A DNA stretch of 25,684 nucleotides. Source: a virus. Taxonomy: Duplodnaviria > Caudoviricetes. Where the stretch lies: positions 1 to 25,684 of the IMG/VR virus record IMGVR_UViG_3300031997_000058. One strand, written 5' to 3'. Every line of letters begins with the position of its first letter. The stretch's first letter is position 1. A model generated the notes under the pieces. The model was not told where the DNA came from and ran no database searches. It worked only from the letters and a program-made list of their open reading frames with translations. Shown here piece by piece: positions 1-24,939 of the stretch. Position numbers and translations under genes: made by a program.

Positions 1-690
1 AGCCCTATTCAAAGCCTGTTCTGCGCGAGCGTTGGCCAAGGTAGCAAGCGTCCTTACAGTAGAAATCTCTTTAGTCATACCTTCCTGAGCCGTATCCAAA
101 GAAGCTAACCGAGTCTCTACGATACGGATAGACTGATCAATCTTTTGTCCCCGCTCTTCCAACATATTGGGGAAGGCTTCTGTGGCAGCCAGTGCTTTAC
201 TAGCATCGGTATTAGCTGTTGTAATATCGCTAACCAGGGCGTCGACCTGCTTCTGTGTATCGGCCAGCCCCGTCTCCAGGGTATCCACCTTATCGCCCTG
301 ACTGGCTGTTCTAATTATAATATCATTTAGTTCAGTATCAAAGGTTGCGAGGGTCTCTGTTAGCGCAGTAATAGCTTCTGTATTTTGAGTAACCGTAGTG
401 CTGACTGTGGAAACTTCAACGGTCGCCTTATCCACTGTCGACGTTAAAGTGGTTACACTATCATCTAGAGAAGCAACTCGCGCTATAACACTTTGTATTT
501 CTACAGGGTCAGGCACCTTAGCTTCCAAAGCAGTAACCTGTGTAGTTAGAGCATCGGTGGTTTGCTTACTCTCTGCTACCGCGGCATCTACTTTCTCAAA
601 TAGTATTTTATCTCTTATTCCTCCGGGCTGAACTTGAGTTTCTACCTCGGTTAACTTAAGTCTTATATCCGCTACCTCTGCTCCTACGCC
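1..690 (-). other. C-terminal heptad coiled-coil region of the TMP
   Basis: Thr/Ala-rich heptad-like sequence, e.g. VASLDDSVTTLTSTVDKATVEVSTVSTTVTQNTEAITALTETLATFDTELND and KVDTLETGLADTQKQVDALVSDI. Confidence 0.6.
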
Positions 691-3600
691 ACTTAGTCCG
701 GACAAAGCCCCCGTTACCTCACTTAAGTTACTCACAGAGACAGTGAGGCTGGGATTGGTTACTTCAACTTTTAGATTCTTATCAAATGCCGTGGACATAG
801 CCTCGCCTACGGAGGTTATACTTTGTGTAAGAGTCTCTGGTATCTTAACTCCCTGAGAAGTTAAGGTTGATAGCAAACCACTTATCTGTGCCAGGGCCTG
901 CGTTAACGCTTGAGTATCTGGGGCTACGGCCGTCGGAGTGGTTGTAGGCGCATTCAAAGTTGCATCGGCCTGTCTGGTAGACCCCGCGGCATTTAGTTGC
1001 CCACCAGCATCCTTTGTAGTTACAATGGACGAGGGAGAAGCTGTTGCGTTTCCAAAAGTAGCTCTAGCCTCCGCTTCCTTAGCCAGGTTCATGTTAGTTC
1101 TACTTGCCGTTTGAGGTTTCCAAATTTGCATATCTTCCATGTTGGGAGCAGAAGGCATAGCGGTCATATTAGGAGGAGTCTTACCAAACCCGGAAGATAT
1201 GGCGTCTAGTTGAGCGCGGGTAAGCGGAGTAGAGGTAGTTGGAGAAGGCGTGGGGGTAGAGATCGCTGAGGTAGAAGGCCCCCGGTCGCTAAAGGTAGGA
1301 TTACCGTTCGCGTCAACGCCCCGTACCATTCGACTAGTACCTAAAATACTACCTGTCTCCGTACCGATGCCCCCCTGGCTTGAGGACCCAGGACCTGCAG
1401 GTCCTGCGGCAGCTGCGGCAGAGGCTGCGGATGCCGCAGATGCGGCTGTATTAGTAGAAATCTGTGATAGCCAATCGTTAGTAACATCCCCGACACTATT
1501 CAAAACCCCACCAATACCAGCAACTAGGGGGTTAACCAGGTTATCTCTAGCTTTAGTTGTCTCAACTTTACTAGCTTTTTCCTCAGCAATACCTTTCAAT
1601 TTAGTAGCTAGTCGCTGAGCGTCCTCTAAAGCCGGAATTCCTTGGAACTTAAGTTCTCCCCCAACGTTAGTCGCTTTTTCAGACGTAACCAGCTGATTAC
1701 CCAGAGTTTCAGCAAAGTCTTTTGCTAATTTTGCCTCGTCTGTTCCTGCCCCCAGATTCCCGCTAGCAAGCATATCTTTCATCATACTTCTCAGTTGTTC
1801 AGCTTGCCCCTGTTGGTCCTTTAACTTAGAAGTTTGTATAGCTTGCTTTTCTGTTATCTTAGCTTCTTCTTCATCAAAGTCTATCTGCTTTTTGGCTTTC
1901 TCGTGGGCATCCATATCAGCTTTAGAATGTGGACGACCCGTATCATATTCTTTATCGAGATCTAAACGCTTATTTTCGAATTGGGTTCTAAAACCAGGCT
2001 GACCTACACGCGCGAACGGACCTTCTAAATCAGAGAAATGTTCGCCGGCCTTTAAAATACTCTCTTTTAATGTGTTAGGATCTAGTTCCTGTGCCTGTTT
2101 AAAAGCATCAATAGTCTCTTGAATCTTAGTTGAGAACTCCTGTATAGCCGCCCCTAATCGCAAAGATTCTGCTACTCGCGTCATCTCCGCGGTACCTTCT
2201 TGCATACCACCCGTCAACTCTTTGTGAGCGTCAAGGTATGCTTTCAAAATCTTTATACCCTGCTCCTTAGCTATCTTAGCATTTTCTACCGCAGTTTCTT
2301 GCTCTGTATCTTTTTTATTTTTTGCAAATTCAGGAGTAGAAACCTTTGTGGCCACCTCTTTTCTGGCAGCGGCCGCTATAGAAGGTTGTCCAAGCAGTTC
2401 TTGTTGAATAGCTAATTCTTTTGGTTGTAGCATAGCTCGACCCGATGCTATCATCGAACTGCTTCCAGGTAACGTACTGCTAGCCTCTAGGGACAGCTGG
2501 CTTTGCACCGCAGCCAACTCTTTCTTAAGTCTATCAATAGTTTTTTGTTCTGCTTCCGGAACACCAGGTGTGGCTACCGAAGTTGGCGCACTAAATTTAA
2601 GATAGTCGTTCTGACCCCAACCCCCTTCCTTTTTCTCACTGGTTATTCCAAACAAACTTTGCAACGTACTCTCAAGATTTTTCGGACCTTCTGCTTTTCC
2701 TAATGCAGACATAAGTTCCGAACCACTTTTCTTAGCAAGACCACCCTCGACAATAGCTTTTTTTTCTTCCGGAGATTTGGCAGCCAATACTTCTTTAATC
2801 AAACCTAACTCTGCTAATATATTGTCTTGCACAGACGTTTGCTTCTGCATTTCCTCAAGAGGCATCTTAGCGGAATCTTCTATGGCCTTAACTAAAGTCT
2901 GTTGCTCCTTAGATAGCATCCCCTTTCCGGCCTGAATGCTCGCCGTTTCTTTATTAAGTCTTTCATTTCCTTTGGAAAGATCCCTTACCATCTCGGTTAT
3001 AGAACGTTTTGTTTTTTCTAAATCTACAAGCCCTGTACTTTGAATCTCCCGCTGCTTCTCCCTAACAGCTAGGTTGCTCACCCCTTGAGAAAACTTAGGA
3101 CCTAGAGCCTTCTGTAACCGCTCCATGCCAGTAAGTTCTTTTTCAGACTTGCCCAAGGTTACGTTGGGCATCTGTGACAACCCGGATAAAGCCCCGCTCG
3201 TATGGGTAAGAGTCTTAAAGCGAACCTCCTCTTCTAAAGCGGCGTCCTTGACGGCATCCGATGTCTTTTCCATAACAGTCTGCAATTCGTACATCGCTTG
3301 CGTAAGATGCGCTATATAAGATAGTTGAAAGCCTTCTTTCATAAGTTTAACCATGCTTTCTCTATCAGCATCTAACATAATAGTTAACTGTTGACTGCCT
3401 TTTCCAAAGCCGGCCATGGCCTCGGCAGGGTTTGAATCATCTAAATCTTCATTAAATTTCTTAGCAGCTTCGGCCCACTCCGCCTGCACTCTAGAAAGTC
3501 TTTCTACCTGTGCCGATATACCGGGGTCTGTAAGCATTCTTTGTTCTGGAGCTACGTCGCGCATTCTAGCAGGACCTATATTAACTGCGGCCTGAGGAAT

Positions 3601-6600
3601 ATGGAACCCTGCTAATACCCCTGTAAATTGAGTAGTAAGTAATTTCTTGGTCTTCTCAGATTCTTCTATAATTTTTTCTTTCGGAAAAATAGCCATAAGA
3701 CCGTCGCTGACAGCAGATCCGGCGTCCGCAGATGCTTCTTGCCAAGATTTAGTAACAGAGTTAAAGAATCTAAATGTTAATGCTCCGGTTTCCTTATCTA
3801 ACTCCATAAAACCATTTCTGGCAGAACGAATACTCTCTTGCATTTCCCGAGGCTGTTTCTCAAAAGTTTCCATTTCTTTAGACAGGCCTAAAAGAGAAGC
3901 CGCTGCTTTATTTGTAAGTATTCCAATATCTCCAGATTTAAGAGGACCGGCCGTCTTCGGACTTTCGGGCAATACCCCTTTTGCGATCATAGCATTACTA
4001 ACAAGAGCCGGGTTGGTGCCCGTGGTATAATCAACAGTACCCCCTAGTCCATAAGACTTAGCCATTTCTTTAAACTCTACCGATCCTAAGGTGGCCCCCT
4101 TACCAAAAGCCCCTGTGGCCGCCCCCGCCCCTATACCGGTGGTCAACTCCGGATTACTAAGAAGGGCCGCCTGCGCCGAAGTATCCTTTAATACTGGCAT
4201 TTCTTCAAGTACCCGCTTCATCTGAAGACCAATAGCTAAAGCCTCCCCACGCAGCTGGACTTCCTCCGCTACCGCCTCGTTACTCTGCATCTGAAGCCCC
4301 AGAGAAGACTGGCCGCTATCCGCCAACTTCTTTCTAGCTTCTCCTATCGCTCTCAATCTATCTTGCGATGCTTTTAGATCACCGGCCAGCGAGTATTCCT
4401 TACCAATGCCTAGTACCTTAGACGGTAAACTCTTAAAAATATTCCAAGCCCCTTTTGCCTTAGTTAACTCATTAGAATACGCGGTTATTGTTTTTATTTG
4501 CAACGCCGCAGCGATAGAACGTTGTGCGTCCGCAGCAGAATTAGCTACGTTCTTAAATCCTTCATCTATGTGCATAATATAATCACCGGTCTCAGAAAGA
4601 CCTTCGATACTGCTAGGATCAAATACCGCCGTAGCCTCAGCAATTTTTTGGTAAGTTTTTTGATAGTCTTGCCCCGCCTTAGCGGGTCCTACATAAGTTC
4701 CAGATTCTAACTGCTCCCTTAGATTAGTGCCAGACGCTAAATTGGAAACTGACTTTTTATATCTATCATACGAGGCCGCTAGTGTGTTTACCTTAGATGC
4801 CTGGGAAGCATACTGACTAGCCAAATCTAAACTTTGACCAACTTGATCCTCAGAACCAGCCTCAACTTCTTTACCTGTTATATTAAGTTTATTATATGCA
4901 TGAATCAATAAACCTAGAGCCGCGACCACTACGCCTATACCCGTAGTGATCATTATAGTCTTACCAAAAGCCATCCAAGCTGCACTAGCAACCTCTAGTC
5001 CACGCGCCATCCCTGTCAAACTGTTTCCAAACTTCGCATTGACCGCTGCGGCCCCCTGAACATCCGCCATGAACGTACGAATACTTTTTGCTGGCTTATC
5101 CAATACCTGTGTTAGAAGACCCGCCCCCTGTAACCCCGCACCAACGTCCCCTACCTTACTTAGACCTCCAAATAATCCCCTACCTGCACTAACTGGGGCC
5201 ATAGCAACACTTTTCAACATAGAACTGAATTTACCAAGCTTGGGCCCTGCCTCAGAAGCAACTCCCCCAATATCCCTAAAAGTATTCATGGCTATCCAGC
5301 CAAGTTTATTTATTCCTATGAAAGCTGTCCCACCTACCGCTAATACCTGTAAGAATATCTCTGGAAGGGAACTAACCGCGTTAGCTATCCCGGATATAGT
5401 CTTTATAACCGCGGTACCGGCGGGCAACATCGATTTACCCACGGCTAATCCCAGCCCCGCAAAAGTTTGCTTTAACACCTCTATCTGCTTAGCCGCAGTT
5501 TGCATTGCTAGGGCATTCTTCTTCGCAGCAAAACCTTGAGCATTTTGTGAATCTGCAGACGCCTCAGTAACTTCAGAAAAGTTTTTCATAAGAACAATAA
5601 AATCATTATAATGTCTAGTGCCCGCCATAGCTTGCGCAATAGCTAACTGTTCTGAGCGATTTAATGTATCCCAACTACCCGCCAACTCAGCGAGCACGTC
5701 CATAGCTGGGCGTATATTTCCAACCATATCCTGAGTACTTACACCTTGGGCACCCAGCGCCTTTTGGGCCTTAACGCTACCGAACTGTTTAAACATGAAA
5801 CGCATGGCTGTACCCACTTCTGTACCAGTCTTTCGTGTAACTGATCCAATAGCTGTAACCATGCCCATAAAATCATTAAAACCGACACCTGCAGATTTGG
5901 CAGCCATACCGGTGCGACTCACGGCCTGAGCTAAGTCCTTCGCTGTAACCGCGTGTTTAGCAGCCACGGACCCCCATGAATCTACGAAAGTTTCGCTACT
6001 CTCTATCTCATCACCGAACTGTTTGGTGGCAGCAGTTAAAGCATTGGTAGCTTCTTCAGATGTAAGTGTGGTAACGTTTACAGCTAACATCGTAGCGCGA
6101 GTTCTGTCCATAATCTCAATAGATTTAAGCCCCTGTTGCGCATAGACTTCCATACCCTTAATGACTTCGGTTATAGGTGCCCCAAATTCTTTAGCCATCC
6201 CAACAGCGGCATCTTGCATCTTATCAAAGTTAGTTATAGTAGTATCCATAACCTTCTTGAGTTCAAACATTCCCGTCTGTACTTCAGTTATGGTTGTGAC
6301 TAAATTCTGGAAAACTCTAACTGCTCCGTAAACTATACCCGTAGCCATACCCCACTGACCTACACGCATTAGAGCATTTTTAAGTTTATTACCAAAATTA
6401 TCAGTAGCTATTCCGGCCTGGGTCATATGCGCCACAAAAGCACCGGAGGCCCTATCAAACTTAAAAGCGGCCTGTAGTTTCTGTAGAGTCTCACCTGTCT
6501 TAGGACTGATAATCTGACCGGAGATGGGTTCGAATTTAGTTTGCCCCGTAGCCTTATGAACCTGTGTTCGCTCTATAGCCGCCTCTTTTGCTCTTGCTTC

Positions 6601-9600
6601 AAAAGCCCGGCTTTGTTCTCTAAACGCAGCTATCGGGTCCTCAACTGTTTTAGCAGAAACTGCCCTAGTAGACTTAGTACTTGCTTTTAATGCCGCTATA
6701 TCTGCTGTGGACGTAACCGCACCGAACTTAGGAAGCTGTCGCCCTAGAACCGCAGCGGAGTCGGCAATGTTCTTAAAACCTACAGCAGTTCCCGAGGCCT
6801 CACCATCTAAAGTTTCTGCGAGCCCCGTAAGTTTACGCATGATTACCAGTACTTTTGCTAAATGGGTTGCAAACTGTTCTGGGTGTTTTTCTAATTCAGC
6901 CAGGATAATTCCCCACTGGGCCGTGGCGTCTTTTCCGGCAACCACTTCATTTACAACTTTCTCGAGCATACCCGCCATGCCCTTAAACTGTGCGCCTTCC
7001 GCCCCACGCCCACCAACTTCACTAATAATGGCCGAAGCCGACCCCGGTCTGGGTTGTACTCCAGCCGCCCGTGCCTCAACATTTGGAATACCTTTATTAG
7101 AGGCGATAATAGAATTTATTCTTCCCGTACCCTTACCAGACCTAGCTAAAGTGGAAGAAGCTTCTGAAATTATTTGATCAGTTTTAGCTTCTAATTCATT
7201 AATAGCAACCTGGAACTCCGTTGAACCAGTCTTTCCTTCTGACTGTAACGTCTGTATGGCTTTAACCAACACCCTTCGCTCATTCAATAAGTATGTTAAT
7301 CTGGCGGCCTGAAACTCTTTATCTAGTTTAGCTAATTCTAGATAAGGACTCACGCCCTGCGATTTTGGAAGCTGCTCGAGAGCCGCACTATAAACGCGTC
7401 GCTCTTTTGTCACTTGCTCTTTAAATGCAGAATACGTTCTAGGACTACCGTACGGACTCTTACCGGGCACAGCCCCTTGTGCTTGTTTCAAAAGGGCGAG
7501 CATCTGATCACCCCTATCTGCGCCCCGCACAAGTTGGGGTTCTTCCGTACCGAGTTTCCCTCCTTTAAGTTCACGTCCACGAGTCAGCCGGTGTTCTTCT
7601 CTACCCAGCGTCACCGCCCTTTCCATAGTGTTTCCACGCTCTAAAATCTCATCCAAACGCTCTTTACCTGGGTATTGCGGAGGAATAGCATGAACCATCC
7701 GTGCAGCGACCCTGGTCTGTGCAGCTTTTCTGGCCGCGGCCGGTGAAGCCCCCACAGAGGCGGTCAAACCTTGAAGAACAGAAGAACTTAGTTGGGTACC
7801 AAAATTATAAATTTCCTTTTCCGCTTCCGGAAGAAGACCTAGAAGCTCGGTCCCCATCCGGCGTATAGCATCTTGAAGTGCATCAGGTAAACCTTTTAAC
7901 AACTTATCAAGCTGTGGCTTTTGTGCTGCAGGAGCTAAAGCCTCCTGTGCCATACTATCTATATAGATGTCATTCAATTTCTTTAGAGCTTTAGCAGAAA
8001 CCTTAGTTTTGGCCTTACTCCCCGGTGTAAGCGCAACCGTTTCTTCCCCGGCCTGCAGGGCATCACGCATTAGCCCGACCCCCGCGGCCTTTGCTTTAAC
8101 AATACGTTTCTCATCTAACCTAGAGCGTAACTCCCTTACACCCGGCGTAGAACTATCTCTCAAAATTAATTTAAGTTCCTCGAGAGGCTCAATGGCACCC
8201 TTGTTCATCAAAGCATGAAGATTCTCGTGCGTAAGTGTTCCGGTAAGCTTCATAATAGCCGCAGACATCTCATTAAGTAATTCAGGTGTTGCTGCTAATT
8301 CTCCCCGTCCCATTTGCTCTAATTGAGCAAAAACCTTCTCTATCGGTGCCAGTATGCCTTCCGCCGACAAAGAAATAGCACCGCCCTGTTTAGTTTTTTT
8401 AGTTATACCCAGTGGGGCCGGACCCTGCCCAGCCATCTGGGGAAACTGCGCCTCAAAGTCTGCCAGAGTATGTACTCGTATTTTGTCTTTAAAAGAATTT
8501 ATATATTTAGTCAGACCGGCGTGTAAACTCTTAGCTATTTTACTAGCAGCGGCATCTCCACCCTCATCTGAGAACTGAAAAGTATCGTTAGGTAATCGTT
8601 CTACGGTCTTTCTAAGGCGTGCCTCTAACGGTAGCGCTTCTGAAGCCCTAACCCCACGTTTCCTTGTAGCATATACATCTGGGTGTAGAATAGACTCTGC
8701 CGCATTTAAATTTAAGCCCCTTGGCCCCGACATCTGTCGCCTAACTTCTTTTTCAGCGTCTGTCTGCGACATACTTTTGCCCCGCTGTAGGGCTTTTATT
8801 GATTCTTGAATTAATACTTCCTGTATTTTATGTAGAAAAGTAGGAAAAGACTCCTTCTGAACTTGCTTCTCTATCTCGGCTTTCCAATTTCCTCCTTTCC
8901 CTGTAGTAATTGGCTTACCCACAACTTTAGATAACTTTGCCGGATCCATAGACTCATAAAATTCTCGGCGCTTAGACATTAATGCATCATTTTCCTTTCC
9001 TAACTTCTCAAATTCTCCACCTTTACCCATACCTTTAATAATAGTTTCTACACCCCCCATCTTACCGAGATGCTCAAGAAATTTAAAAGCAGGCATATCC
9101 GAAAGTTTTATATCAGCTCCACCATGCTTTGTAGCTAGCGCCTGGTTTATATTAAGCATTATATGGGTTAGACCAGACGCAAAATGCTCACTCCCTCTCA
9201 GAGTTTTGGCAGTCAATGTCTCGAGCTGAACATAACTAGAGGTAGCTAACCCCGTAGATAGTTTAGGAGAAATCAGTTTTTGGGAAGCTTCGGCTTCTGC
9301 TGGGCCCTGACTCGGACGCAACGTAGTACCCAATTCTCCTGCCGCGTACTTTCTTCCTTTAGCCCCAGCAACTTCCTTCATCCGTACATCTAACTCTTTA
9401 GGACTTATAGAAACAATAGACTCTTCTAATTTATCTCTAAGTCTTCCTAAAATTCCCCCAATGCTATAAGAATCTTGTTGTAGTACTCGTCTAAGATTAG
9501 ACATCTCGGCAGATACTTCTTTAGTTAGCCCCGCGTGCAAAACTATAGCATCCCCATCCAAATCTAGATTCTGAGATGCGTGCGCAAAGTTCGAACGAAG

Positions 9601-12600
9601 ACCATCTAATGCTACTTCTAAATCACGTATATTCTTACGAACCTCCGGAGATGACGCTCCCCCTGCTCCGCGAACCTGGTTCAAAAGTCTTGCTTTTTCT
9701 GCTTCCAGAGGTGCACGCATCTTCTCCTCTTTCTCTTTAGAAAGAAGCGTGGGTACCGTAGGTACAGCAAATTTACCACGTAGACTCTCATCCTCGGTAG
9801 TCTTTATTCTGGCAGAAACGAAACTAGCAGACCCCGTAGTAGGATACCTATGAGTAGAAACATCTTCGGTAAGAAGACGCTTCATCTCTTCCGCTACCCC
9901 CCTCCCTGTTTCTTTAGACACCGACGTCGCCCAGGAACGCACATCCCCCGTGTGCATCCCGATCTCACCCCGCTTCATTGTTTTTTCAGGCTGTATAGCC
10001 CGAGCTTCTCCTATAAGAGATAAAGATTCCCCCACGTCTTGCCCGGCAGCACCTAATTTTTTTAACTCTGTTTCTGCCGCGGCCAGGCCTTCCATTCTTT
10101 CCGCAGGATAACTTACAACACTGCCGTAAGGGGAAATAGAAGTAGAACCCTGCTTAGCTGCCGAAAGACTTCTAGCATTACCCGTACCCGGTCCTTCTAC
10201 AGCTGTTTGAAGAAGCTTCTTAATATAACTCTCACGCGCTGCTTGTTGTGCTTTATAAGCAGCAGCAATCTTCTCTGTATCCCCGGATAATTCAACACCA
10301 AATAGTTTTAATGCTTTTTGAAGCCGTGCTACTCTATTTGGCGTCTCTGGATCAAAAAGTTGACCAGTAGAAGCCAGAGCTTGATAGCCACCAATAGGTT
10401 TGTCCTGCCCAGGACGCTTAACGAGAACATCCCGCAAACGAAGCATCCGATGCATAGGGTCTTCGTTTTTATTTATATAAGATTCTGCCGTCTTCTCCGG
10501 ATAGTTTGTAACTTTTCCCTTAAACTTGTATTGCAAAGAGGCTGTAGACCCCTCACCGTGTACTAAGGACATCATCTTTTCATTAAATACTTTCGCTTGT
10601 GTACCTGCCTCTGTGGGATTTGTTTGTGCTAGCTTTCTAATACTGGCAACCTGCGCGTTAACGGCTTGGTTTATCTGATGAGTGGCCTCATCTAAACTCT
10701 CCTTACTAGTTGTATCTAACCCATCTAACGTTAAAGATAGGTGAGCCGCCGCAACTCTAAGGTGTTCCAGTTCGCGTGTAAGTTTCCCAACCCCTATAGC
10801 CCCGGTAGTATCTTTTTCAAACTTGTCTCTACCCCCAGGTGTCCCTATAGCCGGGACCCTAAATTGCTCAGTGGTACCCGTTGGACTTCTAAGTGGCATT
10901 GTAAAAGCCTTCTTATACTTTTCAGCATCTAAAAGTGTACCAGCGTAGGCTTCTGGAGGCTGGGTACCGTGAGGAAGAGGGGCTATTTCCCCGGGCAGAA
11001 CTTCTTTTAACCCTTCTTTAGTTACATCTAAACTTCCGTCTAAAGCTCGTAACTCTGTAATTAAATCAGAATACGTCGCAATTAATTTCTTGTGCTGTGT
11101 ATCTAGTTGCCTAGCCATAGCCGATTCTGCGCCATAAGCAGTTACTAGGGAAGCACGATCCGAGGAGGATATAAACCTCTTCTCTTGCATCAGCATTCCC
11201 TTTTCCTTACCCTCACCAAGAGAGCCGATATGCACCCCGCCAACCATTATACTTCGACCCTCGGGGGCTCCCCTACCTAATACTCCGCCTTTAACTGTAG
11301 ACATCCCCGTAAAACCTTTAAGTCCTAGTTCCTTAGATACACTCTCTATTGCTTGACTAAGGCTCATACCTGCCTTTACCATAGCGTGTTCCATCATCTC
11401 AGCTACTTTAGCAGAAGAAACTTTAGCCGCATCAGCCATTTCATTAGTCATAGCCTCACTAAAATCTCGTATACTCTGCCGCTTCATCGCCCCCCGCTGC
11501 CCCAGCACTGCTTCTATAGGCCTACCCCTTTTGTCTTTACCCAGATTCTCTTCTAAACGTACTACACCCTTAATACCTCCCCGCGTATTAACTTTACTGC
11601 CCGTAGTCATTGGCATAGTCTGTTCCACGGTAACCGCTAAGACGTCTATCCCATCCTCGATACGCTTAGAAATACTTTTTACTTTGGCTGCGGTACCCTT
11701 TAAATCAAAGGCAACGTCCTCGTCCTTAAAACCCTTACCCATAAACTGCTTATGCGTAAGGGTCATACCTTCGACAACACCCTCAGTAACCTCTTTTAAG
11801 ACCAGTGTCTCTGTCTTTAAAATACTCATATTCTTAGCCGCAGACTTTAATATCAAAATCATATCTTCTGTAACATCCGGCATATCTACAAAGGCCGTAC
11901 GTAATTCTCTTCCTTGCTTAGAACTTATATTTCCAGACTCCATTAGAGAACGCTCTCGAGTACCCATGACTCTAGGGGCTGTTCCCTCGAGCATTTCCCT
12001 TACCTGTGTTGGTTGAAAAGATCTTGCGGGATTTATAGCCCCAGATCCAAGATGCCCTGCGCCTGCAAACGGTATAGTCTGAACAGGCAGTTCCGCCTTA
12101 TACTCACTAGCCTTCATCTCATCAGTTATTTTAGGAAACTTTGCCTTACCTACAGAACCCTCAGATAGTCCTACGAGAGTAGCCGTTTCTACCCCCAACT
12201 CTTTTAACTTTGAATTAAGTTCTCCTAGCCATCTGACCACCTGAATAATTTGTAGACGTTCTTCTTCTAATTTTTTAAGATGCTCAAACTGCTCTTCAGT
12301 AGGTTTAAAATGAACCGTTGCTTCTCCACTTTTCTCTGTAGAAGCCATACCCTTGTTTTCTTCATGCGCAGGTAACTCTGCAACTACAGTATTTATTACT
12401 TTCTGTAATTGAGAAACTGCCTGTGCTGGACGGAATACACCTCCTTCAGCGGCACGCTGCAGAACACTACGCTCATCTTTTCCGGGTTTAACTCTGTTTA
12501 GCTCAGTAAGTATACCCTCCAGTTTATTAGCTACTTTAACAACCTTTCCTCCAAAAACTTCAATATCTCTGGTGACCACCCGTACGATACCTGCACCGGA

Positions 12601-13791
12601 AGAAATACCGGGAGCCCCTCTAAGTCCTGGGTCTTCGGAGATAGCCGGCAAGTTAAGTTTATTATAAATACCCTTACCACTAACAGTAGAACCAAGAGCC
12701 GTCTTAAGTGCTGTTTTTATAGCCTCTATAGTACCAGCAATCTCCGTGTGGCTAGCTCCAAGAGAAGGAGGAAGCCTACCTCCCGGAGGAAGAGAACTGG
12801 GAATAGGAGGAATAGCTGCTCCGCGTCCCTGCGAAACATTTAAGTTTTTAATAGCCTGTGCCATCGAAGAGGTGGTGGAACTAGATGACTTACGTTTAAT
12901 CTCGTTCTCATAATTATAAACTACATCTCGTTGTTCGTTGGGGGCATATCTTTGAGGTTGCCTAGTACGTATGCCTTTGGCCCTATCTGCAAGCATCTTC
13001 CTAGTCTCAGCATATCCCGCAGGATCCTGAACTTCGGTAGGATACTTATAAACCTGAGTCGATTGGTTAGCGACGTCGTATTGGGGAGAAGGATACCTGG
13101 GTGCAGCAGGCTTAGGAGGAACTACGGCTTTGGGTGCGGGAGCAATAACCGCGGGAGCGGGTTTGGAAAGTGTACTCTTTATGACCGCTTGCTCAGCTTC
13201 TGCAGCAGCTATCCTATTACGCGCTACTTTAAGCTCTGCTTCAGCTGCTTTCTCACGCATCTCCCTAACATTCTTCTCCTTAGAAGTTTCTCTCTTAACA
13301 GGAGGAGAAAGAGGCGGCGTAGCCGCAACAGGAGGTGCAGGTCTAGAAGTAACAGGTACCGCAGCACCAGCTTGTCTAGCACGAAAATCTGCAAGTGTAG
13401 GTAAATTATAAAATGATTTTATAGGTGCAGCCGCCTGCACAGGGGCGGCAGCTTTCACTACTTTGGCAGTCTCCGCGGCTTTAGAACTATTCTTATCTAC
13501 CGCCGCTGCTAATTTTTGAATTGCCTGCGCAAGAGGGGACAGTTCTGCCTTCAGCGCGGCCGCAACTGCTTTAGCAACCTCGTTCCCAGAAACACCTGTA
13601 GCCACCGATGCGCTGCGCACCGTGGCTGGAGAAGGCAATGCCTGTGTTAAAGCCTGGCGAGACGGCTTAATCCCGCTGGCAGCTTGTGCTAAAGCAGTAT
13701 TTAATGCCTGCTTAAACTGTGTGGTAATACTTTCAAGGCTAGATTGCTCGACTTCGAGACTAATCCCAACCTTGAAGGACTCGTCTATCAA
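1..13791 (-). CDS. Giant tape measure protein fused to a two-barrel virion RNA polymerase and a zincin-like protease (>=4597 aa, 3'-partial)
   Basis: Manual translation found no stop from TTG (13789-13791, preceded by GGAGG-TAAAGGAAG) to position 1. It begins [30 protein letters not shown] and sits in the TMP position right after the tail tube and chaperone genes. It contains RNAP beta motifs ([21 protein letters not shown]), a beta' motif (NLDLDGD), HENLH and a TP901-type TMP core. It is absent from the ORF track, probably because its stop lies outside the window. Confidence 0.93.
   Translation of the reverse strand, partial: [4597 protein letters not shown]
4895..5370 (-). other. Predicted membrane-spanning segments of the TMP
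   Basis: Hydrophobic stretches [16 protein letters not shown] (~5310-5355) and [21 protein letters not shown] (~4897-4957) just C-terminal of the TP901 core, the usual arrangement in TMPs. Confidence 0.6.
5400..6400 (-). other. TP901-family tape measure core domain (PhageMin_Tail-like), about aa 2465-2800
   Basis: Typical signatures: ELKKVMD...[124 protein letters not shown]. Confidence 0.9.
7900..8480 (-). other. Zincin-like metallopeptidase domain within the giant protein
   Basis: [10 protein letters not shown] (HExxH at 8215-8229; H1855, E1856, H1859). It is preceded by the strand pattern [17 protein letters not shown] and followed by candidate third-ligand motifs GEETVA (~8032-8049) or AQEALA (~7933-7950). 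Confidence 0.68.
9110..10960 (-). other. RNA polymerase beta'-like region with catalytic double-psi beta-barrel
   Basis: Colinear matches to E. coli beta': [49 protein letters not shown] (R1315); [52 protein letters not shown]. The motif is at 9550-9570 (D1410, D1412, D1414). Confidence 0.9.
11020..12080 (-). other. RNA polymerase beta-like region (second double-psi beta-barrel through the beta C-terminus)
   Basis: Colinear matches to E. coli beta: TIPF/[99 protein letters not shown] (K733, K741, same 8-residue spacing); [67 protein letters not shown]. Confidence 0.9.
12730..13640 (-). other. Pro/Ala-rich, probably disordered linker near the N-terminus of the giant protein
   Basis: Segments such as [43 protein letters not shown] and [19 protein letters not shown]. 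Confidence 0.7.
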
Positions 13792-16177: not shown

Positions 16178-18052
16178 TTAGAAAATTCTATGTGCAGTTG
16201 GGTTAACTTGAATACCCGGATTAGCAACCAAGTCAGCTACCGGAACTTCACCAAGAACGGCGAAGATTTCGTTAGTGCCTCGGAAACCATAAGACTGGGT
16301 AGCATTAGAACCCATAGCTAGACTATATGCCTCATCTGTAATTCTAAGATTCTTGGCTATAACAGTCTTTAGAGGTCGCTCTCTGTGTGTATTCGTCTTG
16401 GAAGGCGAGGCCGGAATAGCTGAACCATAGTTGGTAAGCGTATCCGGATCAGAGGCGGTGTTGTCGTAATACAGGTAACGCACACCTCTCTGATAGTACT
16501 CGTCCCCAACCATTTCGCGCGTAACGACACGTCGGTTGGTACCAATACCACCAGCAACCTGGTCGGTTTGCTGGTAAATAAACACAACAAGATCAAGTCT
16601 CTTCTTGGCAGCCAGTAAGTCATAAATAGAAACGTCACCGGTTGTGCCAGCCTGAAAACCAGCTCTCTTAGAAGCAAATGTTGCATACTCTGTCATGTCG
16701 CTTGCAGTCGTTTCAACCTTCACAGTAAACGGAATCGGGAACGTAAGTGCACGATCGTAAGGCCGTAAATGCGAAAGTTCGAACAAAGGCGTACGCGTCA
16801 AATCAGAGGTGATAGTTACCGAAGTAACTCTCAAGGCTATCTGCGCATCAATCGACGCGTTCGGAGCTAGGTTGTTCTTATCGATCAGATAAATTTCAGT
16901 CTGACCTTGTCGAACAGCGCCTAACTCTTCCGGCTTAGCTGCCGAATCAACGGTGATCGGAGCAAAATACTCCGCGTCTCTTCGTGTAGCCATTTTCGAA
17001 GCCGCGACAGAGCCGCCTCTGGTTGCCTGCGCAGGCGCGCTTAGACCCGCATAAGCGTGCGCATAAGCGTTAGCTGCATACAGAACAAACAGAATGTCTC
17101 CGTTTCCAATACCCTCCGTAACCCCGAACTCCACGTTAGTGGTCAGGTCTGTCGGAAAATGCAACCTATTGGTGATGGAGTTATAAACAAAGGCGCCTAC
17201 GGTTGCGGCGGTACCTGTCTGTACCTTAATATCAACGGAACTCTTTAGAGAGGCGTTGAAATACCGAACAGCTGGATTACCAGCCGGGTCGAAACGAAGC
17301 GCGGCTATTTGTCCGGTAGAGCGTGTTGCAATAAGCTCTGGGACAGCGGCCCCCTCGTCAAGACCTAAGTTAACAAAGGTAGCACCAACATCGATGTTTA
17401 AACCTGTTCCACCTGTGATACCTATATTGTTACTTCCGCTACCTACGGCACCAAACACAAACTCTTCATTAGAAATGTATCGGCCAGAGTTTACGAACCA
17501 GAACTTAGCATCTGTTTCTCCACCGTAATTCTCAGTGGCGTTAGCACCAGAACTATAACTCCAAGCTATGGAGTTAATAAAGACACGAGGCAGGAACATA
17601 GACTGGTCAATGATGTCATTGTCCGTTCCAAGAGAGCACTCGGTCTGTACTGGAGCCCAAATCTCAACGCTAGATCCCGTTTCGCAACCCGATATACCGA
17701 AGTCGGATAAGGTGATACCGTGATAATACGATAAATTCACAGCCGCTCCACCCGTGCCGCTGACTACTGTCAAATGCCCGCTAACCGAGGTAGCGGAATG
17801 ATTTGCTACATCGTCAAACTCTAGGTTTGCAAGAGCGTACATGTTAGAAAGAGACCCAAATTCGTTGGTCTCAATCGTCACGGCGACTGTCGGAGAGTCG
17901 TCGACAACGTCGACGAGGTTGAGCTGGCCAAGCTCGAATACGTCCGTAGTGTTAAACGTGGTTGTAGAACCAAACGTCTGAACGCGGTAAAGGACGTTAC
18001 CGTTTGCCCAAACACTTTGGCTCGGGTAAATTATACGGTTTCTTCTTGCCAT
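16178..18052 (-). CDS. Major tail tube protein with two tandem tube domains, 624 aa
   Basis: Follows the tail terminator gene, has a strong SD (AAGGAGG) and is beta-rich. Internal repeats: RVQTF..FELGQL / RVTSV..FELSHL and GANATENYG / GSNATQSYG. Confidence 0.8.
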   Translation of the reverse strand: MARRNRIIYPSQSVWANGNVLYRVQTFGSTTTFNTTDVFELGQLNLVDVVDDSPTVAVTIETNEFGSLSNMYALANLEFDDVANHSATSVSGHLTVVSGTGGAAVNLSYYHGITLSDFGISGCETGSSVEIWAPVQTECSLGTDNDIIDQSMFLPRVFINSIAWSYSSGANATENYGGETDAKFWFVNSGRYISNEEFVFGAVGSGSNNIGITGGTGLNIDVGATFVNLGLDEGAAVPELIATRSTGQIAALRFDPAGNPAVRYFNASLKSSVDIKVQTGTAATVGAFVYNSITNRLHFPTDLTTNVEFGVTEGIGNGDILFVLYAANAYAHAYAGLSAPAQATRGGSVAASKMATRRDAEYFAPITVDSAAKPEELGAVRQGQTEIYLIDKNNLAPNASIDAQIALRVTSVTITSDLTRTPLFELSHLRPYDRALTFPIPFTVKVETTASDMTEYATFASKRAGFQAGTTGDVSIYDLLAAKKRLDLVVFIYQQTDQVAGGIGTNRRVVTREMVGDEYYQRGVRYLYYDNTASDPDTLTNYGSAIPASPSKTNTHRERPLKTVIAKNLRITDEAYSLAMGSNATQSYGFRGTNEIFAVLGEVPVADLVANPGIQVNPTAHRIF

Positions 18053-21854: not shown

Positions 21855-22541
21855 CTAATTTAAAACTGCAAAGAATTCTTCTACAGTTTTACGATTCTTT
21901 CTAAGGTTACAGTGCTTACAACTTATACAAATATTACTTTTTGTATTGTTGCCGCCCCTACACAGGGGCGTCTTATGATCAACGTGGTAACCTTTATCTA
22001 ATCCTAATTTACAATAAAAACACAAATTATTCTGATCTTGTTTCAAATCTAGTATATCTTGAACTGTATAATTTTCACCAACCTCCAACCACGTTCTGCG
22101 CTCCGCACATTTCGCTCTCTTGTAATCGGCGGTCTGAGAAAGGCCGTGAGTGGTCATTTTATCCTGTCGTAAACATCCACAACTTTGCGTTAATCCCTTT
22201 CTTAAACTATAAGAAACTATACGTTTAATATTACCGCAATCACACAGACAATCGTAAAAAGTTCTACTTCCTATTTTTATAGGGGCACTAATTACACGCA
22301 GTCTACCAAACTTACGACACCTGTCTATCTTAATTAGACGTAAGTCTCTAAACTTTTCTCTATGTAAACAACCGCAGCTTTTAGTAAGCCCTCTAATAAG
22401 GTTGTTGGCAATCACTATCTTACTTTTACCACAAGTGCACATACATAAGCATTTAGTGCGTTCTGATTTATTAGGAGGAAAAACATCTACTATTGCCAGA
22501 CGCCCAAACTTCTTACCCCTTAACTGTAAAGTCTTACTCAT
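21855..22541 (-). CDS. Free-standing HNH (homing-type) endonuclease with two N-terminal Cys-rich repeats, 228 aa
   Basis: Two copies of KFGRL...CxCxCG...LxxGLTxSCGCL, then CFYC...YHVDHKTPLCRGGNNTKSNICISCKHCNLRK. Overlaps the upstream gene by 8 nt and looks more AT-rich than its neighbours. Confidence 0.9.
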   Translation of the reverse strand: MSKTLQLRGKKFGRLAIVDVFPPNKSERTKCLCMCTCGKSKIVIANNLIRGLTKSCGCLHREKFRDLRLIKIDRCRKFGRLRVISAPIKIGSRTFYDCLCDCGNIKRIVSYSLRKGLTQSCGCLRQDKMTTHGLSQTADYKRAKCAERRTWLEVGENYTVQDILDLKQDQNNLCFYCKLGLDKGYHVDHKTPLCRGGNNTKSNICISCKHCNLRKNRKTVEEFFAVLN

Positions 22542-23336: not shown

Positions 23337-24401
23337 TTAGAATCGGTCAATGACGCCCATACCAACCATACGAGAGTCGAGCAACGCGAAACCAACTTCC
23401 TCCCAACCGAAGAAGCCTTGCTTCTGCTGTCGGAGAAGAGTCGGGTCATCGTGTGCTTCGAATTCCTTACGGACTGGCATAACGAGAGAGTCATTAACAG
23501 ATAGGTCGAAACCGTAAATCTGGGTTTCGCCGGCCTGTGTAACCGCACCGTTCGCGTTAACGTTGTTAACGTGAGTTGGGGTGTAGTTATTAAATGATCC
23601 ACCGCTAACCTGGAACACACCGTAAGCAGCACCGGACTGGTTGATGTTGAATCTACCAGTGGCGCCTAGCTGATAAACCTCATGAATGTTAATACCCCAA
23701 ACCTTACCAAGACCTGCCGCTTGGAAAATCTCGCGACGAGTAATTGGGTCGATCTGAGTCTCAGTCCATTCACGAATATCGGCAGCGTCTTCCGGAGAGA
23801 TATAAAGATCGGTCAAGGATCGGCGAAGATGCTTAAAGCCAACGAGCATAAGGTTTAGAAGTTCCTTAGAAAGGAATTTCTCGCCAGTAGAACCAGCAGC
23901 AACCTGATATACAGGGGCATTTCGCGCGCCGAGCAGACCCTGGCCAGAGAAGTTCGTGGTAGCACCAGGAACAATAACTCTCCATCCAGACTCTTCCTCG
24001 TATTCGGCAATGGCACGAGCCGCATTTCTAGCAGCACGCTCCGGGATGTCGATACGAGAATCTCTTGCGTAAGTCACTTTCCAATCGGCGGAAACGCTGA
24101 TAGAGAAGGTAGGAACATATACTTCTTCGCCAACGCCTTCGACGAAATTCTGAGCAATGTAACCAAGACCAGGAAGTACGAAAACCGGCACTTCGAAGTC
24201 ATCGGCTACGGGGTAAACCGCCTGTGCACCCGGCGCTAGTCGTTCAACAGAGAACAACTGACGCATAATAGACGCATCGCGGATTTCCTGTAGGATAGGA
24301 ATAGTCAAAGCCTGTGCAAAGGCTTTGTATGCTTCCATACCTTCAGGAGTATCGATTGCGGCTGTTGCCCTGAACAGTTCCGCAAGCTTCGTTCTATCCA
24401 T
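23337..24401 (-). CDS. Major capsid protein (HK97 fold), 354 aa
   Basis: True start is MDRTKL at 24401 with SD AAAGGAGG. Size, position after scaffold and decoration genes, and patterns (ARNAARAIAEYEE; LYISPEDAADIR; GFFGWEEVGFALLD) fit HK97-fold MCPs. Confidence 0.88.
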   Translation of the reverse strand: MDRTKLAELFRATAAIDTPEGMEAYKAFAQALTIPILQEIRDASIMRQLFSVERLAPGAQAVYPVADDFEVPVFVLPGLGYIAQNFVEGVGEEVYVPTFSISVSADWKVTYARDSRIDIPERAARNAARAIAEYEEESGWRVIVPGATTNFSGQGLLGARNAPVYQVAAGSTGEKFLSKELLNLMLVGFKHLRRSLTDLYISPEDAADIREWTETQIDPITRREIFQAAGLGKVWGINIHEVYQLGATGRFNINQSGAAYGVFQVSGGSFNNYTPTHVNNVNANGAVTQAGETQIYGFDLSVNDSLVMPVRKEFEAHDDPTLLRQQKQGFFGWEEVGFALLDSRMVGMGVIDRF

Positions 24402-24438
24402 ATTAATAGATCCTCCTTTTAGATTGGCCTTTGCTAGG

Positions 24439-24939
24439 CTATATGAGAAGCTTAATTCTAAGCTTCGCCCCAGCGGCAACGGCAGTCGCGTCTAGGGTAT
24501 TCTGTGCAATAGCAACAACGTTAGCTTCTGCAGAGTCTACACCGTTCTTGGAATCATAGTCAAGACTATTTACACCAAGAACAGTTAGCTTTCCAGTAGC
24601 CATAACGCCAAGCTTATCGCCAGCGGCAAACGTAGTTGAAGTATTGTAATTTGTAGTGTCGTAGATACCAAGATGTGCAACACCTACAGGGTCACCAGTG
24701 AACGCATCGGAAGAGCCTAAGTCGCCCGGAAGCCGGAAACCGGTCGGGTGAGCAGAGGATTCTGCCTTAACGTTCTGCATAAGGAACCCATAAGGTAATG
24801 TGTTGGTACCACTAACTACTTGAACAAGCTCATCGCCGGAAAGAGAAACAACAGCACCGGCAGTAGCGGTAGAGCCCTTAGTCGAATCATGAGTAAGAAA
24901 CTGATTCTGAACTACGGGGGCTCGGGGTATAAACACCAT
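24439..24939 (-). CDS. Capsid decoration/stabilising protein, 166 aa
   Basis: Lies between scaffold and MCP genes, SD AAGGAGG. Pattern AGAVV...PYGFL...GIYDT...FAAGDKL...GKLT...VVA is typical of head decoration proteins. Confidence 0.7.
   Translation of the reverse strand: MVFIPRAPVVQNQFLTHDSTKGSTATAGAVVSLSGDELVQVVSGTNTLPYGFLMQNVKAESSAHPTGFRLPGDLGSSDAFTGDPVGVAHLGIYDTTNYNTSTTFAAGDKLGVMATGKLTVLGVNSLDYDSKNGVDSAEANVVAIAQNTLDATAVAAGAKLRIKLLI

Follow-up and report, generated by a model that had tools for sequence, protein, structure and literature searches.

Why does one giant protein from an uncultured jumbo phage hold a zinc-protease signature between an RNA polymerase (RNAP) and a tape measure core, and could such a protease cut the polymerase free? 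The window analyzed here is a whole virus record of 25,684 bases (~9% complete), and it carries a minus-strand structural module in the order major capsid protein, small genes, a 624-aa gene, 288- and 352-aa genes, and a giant open reading frame (ORF). This ORF (1..13791, minus strand) encodes 4,597 aa within the window and is open at its 3' end; if it ends as in the homologue P0001, with 6 residues more, the full-length protein would have about 4,603 aa. Its TTG start codon agrees with the N-termini of homologues and has GGAGG upstream, and the protein sequence recurs in a 48,405-bp contig (L002), where 4,307 of 4,307 aa are identical. Judging by position, the 288- and 352-aa genes and the 624-aa gene, which have no family match, likely encode tail tube and assembly chaperones; the 624-aa protein (16178-18052, minus strand; no Pfam or PHROGs match) is the likely major tail protein. 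An HNH endonuclease gene lies within the head-tail module (21855-22541, minus strand). The major capsid protein (23337-24479, minus strand) is 86 to 91% identical in the relatives G001, G003, and G005, compared to ~25 to 50% for the polymerase-zincin stretch of the relatives.

The giant protein starts with a conserved N-terminal cap (aa 1-110; 13462..13791, minus strand), which aligns across 16 homologues whose 5' ends are closed. We take this cap to resemble the N-termini of tape measure proteins, and it is likely one itself, in which case the RNAP-zincin cassette would sit inside the tape measure protein. A variable Pro/Ala/Ser-rich linker follows (aa 111-400; 12592..13461, minus strand; 37% P+A+S, 12% P), with low identity to P0003. 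The conserved tape-measure core (aa 2431-2830; 5302..6501, minus strand) starts at RVGQWG and matches PF10145 at aa 2533-2724 (Pfam E 9e-25) and the PHROGs tape measure family (E 2e-80). Between the zincin-like domain and this core lie one or more conserved domains of unassigned function (aa 1993-2430; 6502..7815, minus strand), a stretch of ~440 aa in which P2304 and Q2393 are invariant and an IIDP-x-TG motif is conserved. A hydropathy scan predicts a membrane segment at aa ~2941-2965 (4897..4971, minus strand), the single strongly hydrophobic segment of the protein, and each long homologue likewise has one. Tail length follows a rule of 0.15 nm per tape-measure residue. P0001 is identical to the window protein at aa 1-2508, 4242-4436, and 4492-4597 and mostly 26 to 61% identical per 100 aa over aa 3001-3900; this mosaic pattern of the tape-measure middle (1-6267, minus strand) suggests recombination between close relatives.

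The first-pass annotation of this DNA had proposed an RNAP fused to a tape measure, and both assignments hold: besides the Pfam and PHROGs matches of the core, a Foldseek search with a model of aa 601-1700 found beta/Rpb2 chains (best E 3.8e-9, ~320 columns). The polymerase part (aa ~601-1740; 8572..11991, minus strand) also gives a profile match to a stand-alone paralogue (E 2.8e-23), and its metal-binding motif, DLDGD (aa 1410-1414; 9550..9564, minus strand), keeps the three Asp and the Gly in 27 of 27 sequences. Model and sequence comparison support a single-chain two-barrel RNA polymerase with predicted activity. The paralogue in G001, itself a single-chain two-barrel RNAP, has 1,032 aa (G001:C1:26800-29898; L018:6800-9898, plus strand) and passes the Pfam cut-offs for Rpb2_6 and Rpb1_2; it has relatives in L055 and L056. 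All three stand-alone polymerases lack HExxH, and in the fusion the position that matches their C-termini is about aa 1740 (hhalign, probability 54%, E 1.3e-4). Since the stand-alone enzyme ends there and has no HExxH, the zincin-like domain begins where the polymerase stops.

This boundary coincides with an acidic loop (aa 1729-1750; 8542..8607, minus strand), with pLDDT below 50 in the model. The loop was first picked by eye, before acidity statistics; its D/E content is above the sequence average in 28 of 28 sequences (0.26 versus 0.13), and none of the other 1,147 overlapping 22-aa windows tested across aa 1330-2500, itself counted among them, is as acidic. The loop is a candidate hinge or site of cutting. 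In the family alignment, neither linker has a conspicuous conserved sequence for cleavage.

Is the HExxH motif more than a chance occurrence? TLTHENLHAL lies in the giant ORF at aa 1852-1861, and the earlier numbering of its glutamate as E1856 is correct. Its HENLH (aa 1855-1859, nt 8229-8215; 8215..8229, minus strand) is the sole HExxH in 4,597 aa, with 0.036 expected from composition. The motif had been placed about 300 aa after the RNAP core and about 600 aa before the tape-measure core. The second distance was accurate, with 621 aa to RVGQWG and 678 aa to the PF10145 match. The first is right when counted from conserved K1555 (300 aa; 445 aa from DLDGD at 1410), but the polymerase itself runs to about aa 1740, so that the domain adjoins it.

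A word search for homologues returned 3 proteins and an exhaustive search 10, of which 9 have HExxH; the tenth stops before that region. A search by the tape-measure core alone returned 35 locus rows. Among these, 25 rows extend 2,000 aa or more upstream (a count that takes in duplicates and the virus of the window itself), and DxDGD and HExxH are both present in every one; two further rows, cut by contig ends, show HExxH. The other eight are unscorable: six end too early, and two are short contigs with an in-frame stop 256 to 323 codons upstream of the tape-measure core (L041 near 399, L052 near 37), which may be a sequence error or a real split. With search patterns derived from RNAP-bearing members, no member with the RNAP and without the zincin, or the reverse, was found.

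The first-pass annotation had named conservation in homologues as a test of the motif, and HExxH with a downstream Glu is kept in all 29 non-redundant sequences (median pairwise identity 23%): H1855, E1856, H1859, and E1950 are invariant. This set excludes 8 near-duplicates, P0001 as identical, and P0010 as truncated. Entry needed an HExxH match, and no region-covering sequence was omitted for lacking one; E1950 was no entry criterion, and 15 of the 29 came in later by way of the tape-measure core instead of the motif. The tetrad makes up four of the five invariant columns among the 248 of aa 1745-1992, and invariant columns number 0 of 184 in aa 1561-1744 and 2 of 438 in aa 1993-2430. This conservation leads us to reject a chance motif. 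E1950 falls 64 to 125 aa after the first His. Of the two Glu ligands suggested earlier, QEALA, which contains E1950, stood, and EETVA (aa 1916-1920) was rejected as part of a gappy, unconserved insert.

Invariant columns and model secondary structure together outline a zincin-like (gluzincin/MPTase-type) HExxH...E domain at aa 1745-1992 (7816..8559, minus strand). Upstream of the HExxH helix lies a G-x-aromatic ... G-x-I strand pair (aa 1795-1809; 8365..8409, minus strand), with G1795 and G1804 each present in 27 of 29 sequences. HENLH is predicted to supply two metal ligands and the general base; in the pair Q1949-E1950 (7942..7947, minus strand), E1950 is the predicted third ligand and position 1949 a predicted second-shell residue. 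The window copy departs from the consensus at three positions, each shared by 27 of the 29: Q1949 (Glu), T1797 (Y/F/H, at G+2), and P1954 (Y/H/W).

FastTree phylogenies of the RNAP, zincin, and downstream regions (25 taxa, four partial rows excluded) have 15 to 16 of 22 splits in common, with 1 to 2 strong conflicts per pair. Compared with the RNAP tree, the zincin tree is 1.5-fold longer, with the tetrad still kept, and the zincin branch of the window is long (1.19 versus 0.47 for RNAP). Such largely congruent trees fit one acquisition followed by joint inheritance and stop short of showing functional coupling.

Does the domain have a zincin fold? A model of aa 1720-2040 (11 sequences, mean pLDDT 68) gives the order helix, strand, weak strand, strand, HExxH helix, insert, and Glu helix, plus an extra helical hairpin. 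The HExxH sits in the helix at aa 1836-1863 (pLDDT ~81 to 82 at the motif) and E1950 in the downstream helix at aa 1933-1956; a helix at 1746-1765 and strands at 1771-1774 and 1806-1809 precede them, and the middle stretch 1796-1803 has pLDDT below 50. As described for polyvalent proteins, the MPTase core consists of a helix with a three-stranded sheet, an HExxH helix, and a Glu helix (PMC5512222), and the element order of the model agrees with it apart from the hairpin and the weak middle strand. Searches with this model returned no zincin in Foldseek pdb at E<=0.001, nothing significant in the viral library (a polyvalent protein row with TM 0.34 and E 0.7 is a lead only), and helical bundles only in VIA-align (best Z 9.0, no zincin). 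The best hint of the Pfam scan, Tox-MPTase2, was below cut-off (E 0.1) in 4 of 23 members, and Atlas clusters gave leads only: LPD23, LPD1, ATLF, and "zincin-like" (0.84 to 0.86) for P0011 and LPD23 (0.93) for the window. Weak profile searches among proteins of 526 to 2,000 aa or 107 to 525 aa found no stand-alone or otherwise fused zincin relatives. Matches to coronavirus HR1 at profile positions ~110-170 and to T4 lysozyme at aa ~986-1078 (E 0.14) were dismissed as chance similarity between helices. As fold and profile searches gave no significant match, the basis of the zincin call is the H-E-H...E tetrad together with the ArdC-like EE pair and the predicted topology. On these grounds aa 1745-1992 very probably adopts a zincin fold, is fairly probably catalytically active, and is likely a metal-dependent zincin protease.

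All family members found are uncultured; no match was obtained in a phage collection, and the family was not found in prokaryote genome contigs. Two relatives, G001 (297,725 bp) and G006 (295,848 bp), are rated complete. Among sheath families, PF04984 was not found in G001, and PF17482 was not found in G001 or G006, which makes a non-contractile tail probable. In G001, two more very large tail-region ORFs, of 2,631 aa (L014:1565-9460) and 2,125 aa (L014:9846-16223) and with almost no Pfam matches, lie downstream of the tape measure gene.

How does this arrangement compare with known systems? One of the closest is gp96 of Thermus phage P23-45, described as a tape-measure-fused virion RNAP plus an M23 peptidase that is full-length in virions (PMC10770324). 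In both, an N-terminal two-barrel RNAP with DxDGD precedes the tape measure part of a tape measure protein of ~5,000 aa, the chain also contains a peptidase, and the genome encodes a second, stand-alone paralogous RNAP (the gp64/gp96 pair in P23-45, G001 here). In contrast, the M23 domain of gp96 lies at aa 3161-3251, past the membrane segments predicted in gp96, which lacks HExxH; no M23 match was found in the window protein, P0002, or P0003, and the P23-45 genome has 86 kb compared to ~296 to 298 kb here. The gp96 RNAP shows no sequence or profile match to that of the window family, indicating that the two fusions are likely independent.

Phage N4 offers a close parallel for the zincin. Its vRNAP (gp50) carries an HExxH domain (C1/MPTase) that starts directly after the injected polymerase and is reported to be packaged unprocessed (PMC5512222); the purified protein is described as free of degradation and is modeled as membrane-anchored (PMC13434306). 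N4 gp50 and the window family share HExxH, a long insert, and an x-E-hydrophobic-hydrophobic-A-aromatic pattern (NEFMAW in N4, EELLAY in the family). hhalign against gp50 aa 2124-2450 aligned 13 to 14 columns (probability 8%), above 60 shuffles and over the motif helix only. By published description gp50 differs in being a podovirus ejection protein with a T7-like polymerase and no tape measure, and in our model of the window family the HExxH helix is preceded by an additional helical hairpin. In phi14:2, a crAss-like phage, the zincin gp65 stands beside the two-barrel vRNAP gp66, or in a polyprotein with such an enzyme, and RNAP activation or wall digestion has been proposed for it (10.1101/2020.03.07.982082); compared by description only, these proteins differ in not being described there as tape-measure proteins. 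ArdC of plasmid R388 has HExxH and an EE pair (E228/E229), of which the second Glu binds metal and the first orients the second His, and E229A is reported without change in conjugation phenotype (PMC7213743). Again by description only, the EE pair recurs in 27 of 29 family members, whereas the window copy has QE and ArdC is a small plasmid ssDNA-binding protein.

What would a protease do at this position? We tentatively favor, at a confidence short of even, a self-cleavage after ejection that is gated by refolding and frees the virion RNA polymerase. Beyond the motif we infer each step of it; cytoplasmic delivery, the chain itself as substrate, the cut site, and the timing would be as follows. 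The tape measure protein is held extended inside the tail tube, so the zincin domain could not fold there and would have no activity as long as the protein remains stretched. After delivery, the domain would refold beside the boundary loop and cleave the chain to which it belongs, with the acidic loop just upstream as the most plausible site, and this cut would release the polymerase from the tape measure protein. H1855, H1859, and E1950 would be the metal ligands, with E1856 as the base, as in ArdC and the MPTases of polyvalent proteins. Self-processing has been proposed for the MPTase domains of polyvalent proteins (PMC5512222) and for crAss-like polyproteins (10.1101/2020.03.07.982082), and the T5 tape measure protein is reported to be cleaved during tail assembly. 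In favor of self-release are the tetrad kept in 29 of 29 sequences, a zincin adjoining the polymerase end, and stand-alone paralogues lacking HExxH in 3 of 3 cases. Against it are the reports of an N4 vRNAP that stays whole with HExxH in the same position, of a full-length gp96 modeled as pore-tethered, and of an ArdC E229A with unchanged phenotype, together with the atypical window copy and its long zincin branch. The closest studied cases, N4 vRNAP and P23-45 gp96, thus lean against self-release by analogy.

The same tethered models of the N4 and P23-45 polymerases favor a different use of the activity, in which the protease stays attached and cuts host proteins (defense factors, repressors, or envelope proteins) close to where the phage enters, a pioneer effector that arrives together with the polymerase. 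E1856 is strictly kept while the domain otherwise changes fast, as expected with a moving host target, and the option is named for related domains (PMC5512222). We nevertheless rate it as rather unlikely: genome contigs gave no match that would point to a host or target, and a fixed position with vertical inheritance would be unlike typical swappable effectors.

The domain may instead cut nothing, acting as a metal-binding structural or regulatory module of an uncut protein, such as a refolding nucleus, a DNA-handling surface, or a polymerase brake. The N4 C-terminal domain, with its HExxH subdomain, is described as packing on the polymerase and modestly inhibiting it; the mutational result for ArdC and the loss of nearby consensus residues in the window lineage point in the same direction. 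A purely structural site would hardly need the general-base Glu, yet it is kept in 29 of 29, and this reading is unlikely.

Improbable, in our estimate, is a cut during tail assembly that leaves separate polymerase and tape-measure pieces in virions. T5 and lambda tape measure proteins are reported to be cleaved in tail morphogenesis, and P1 DdrB, with an MPTase, is processed ahead of packaging (PMC5512222), but P23-45 and N4 are reported to package the uncut protein, and cleavage before assembly would detach the core from the conserved N-terminal cap. A role as peptidoglycan peptidase, breaching the cell wall to let the tape-measure channel through and suggested by a muralytic metallopeptidase motif reported in T5 pb2, the M23 of gp96, the wall role proposed for crAss gp65, and the absence of any Pfam muralytic domain from the giant ORF and 14 downstream tail-region G001 proteins, is very improbable for a domain that lies beside the polymerase, with ~950 aa between it and the predicted membrane segment on its C-terminal side, whereas the T5 and P23-45 peptidases are described C-terminal of theirs.

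How new is the arrangement? The first-pass annotation knew of no described triple fusion, a claim that needs narrowing. A polymerase-tape-measure fusion, with an M23 peptidase as the third part, is already published for P23-45 (PMC10770324), as are polymerase-zincin pairings for N4-like and crAss-like phages (PMC5512222; 10.1101/2020.03.07.982082). The order RNAP, zincin, and tape measure, with a zincin-type domain adjacent to the polymerase, was not found described in the literature searched, mostly outside subscription papers. As judged from sequence, the finding is a new ordering of known parts that includes a zinc-protease signature under strict conservation, and self-release is a plausible, testable proposal built on it.

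The family represents a second, apparently independent polymerase-tape-measure fusion. By published description of the other two, three unrelated phage groups now combine an injected RNA polymerase with a neighboring zincin-type domain. The family offers a clean test of the role of this domain, with a defined polymerase end, a conserved acidic boundary loop, four invariant residues, and a zincin-free paralogue as control. If self-release is true, it would explain how an enzyme threaded through the tail within a membrane-inserting ruler becomes a free polymerase. It is somewhat unlikely that these ~300-kb, probably long-tailed phages independently built an RNAP into the tape measure together with a self-cleaving release zincin triggered by refolding; if so, the injected polymerase with its zincin in N4-like phages, crAss-like phages, and the phages described here would be one convergent release or activation switch.
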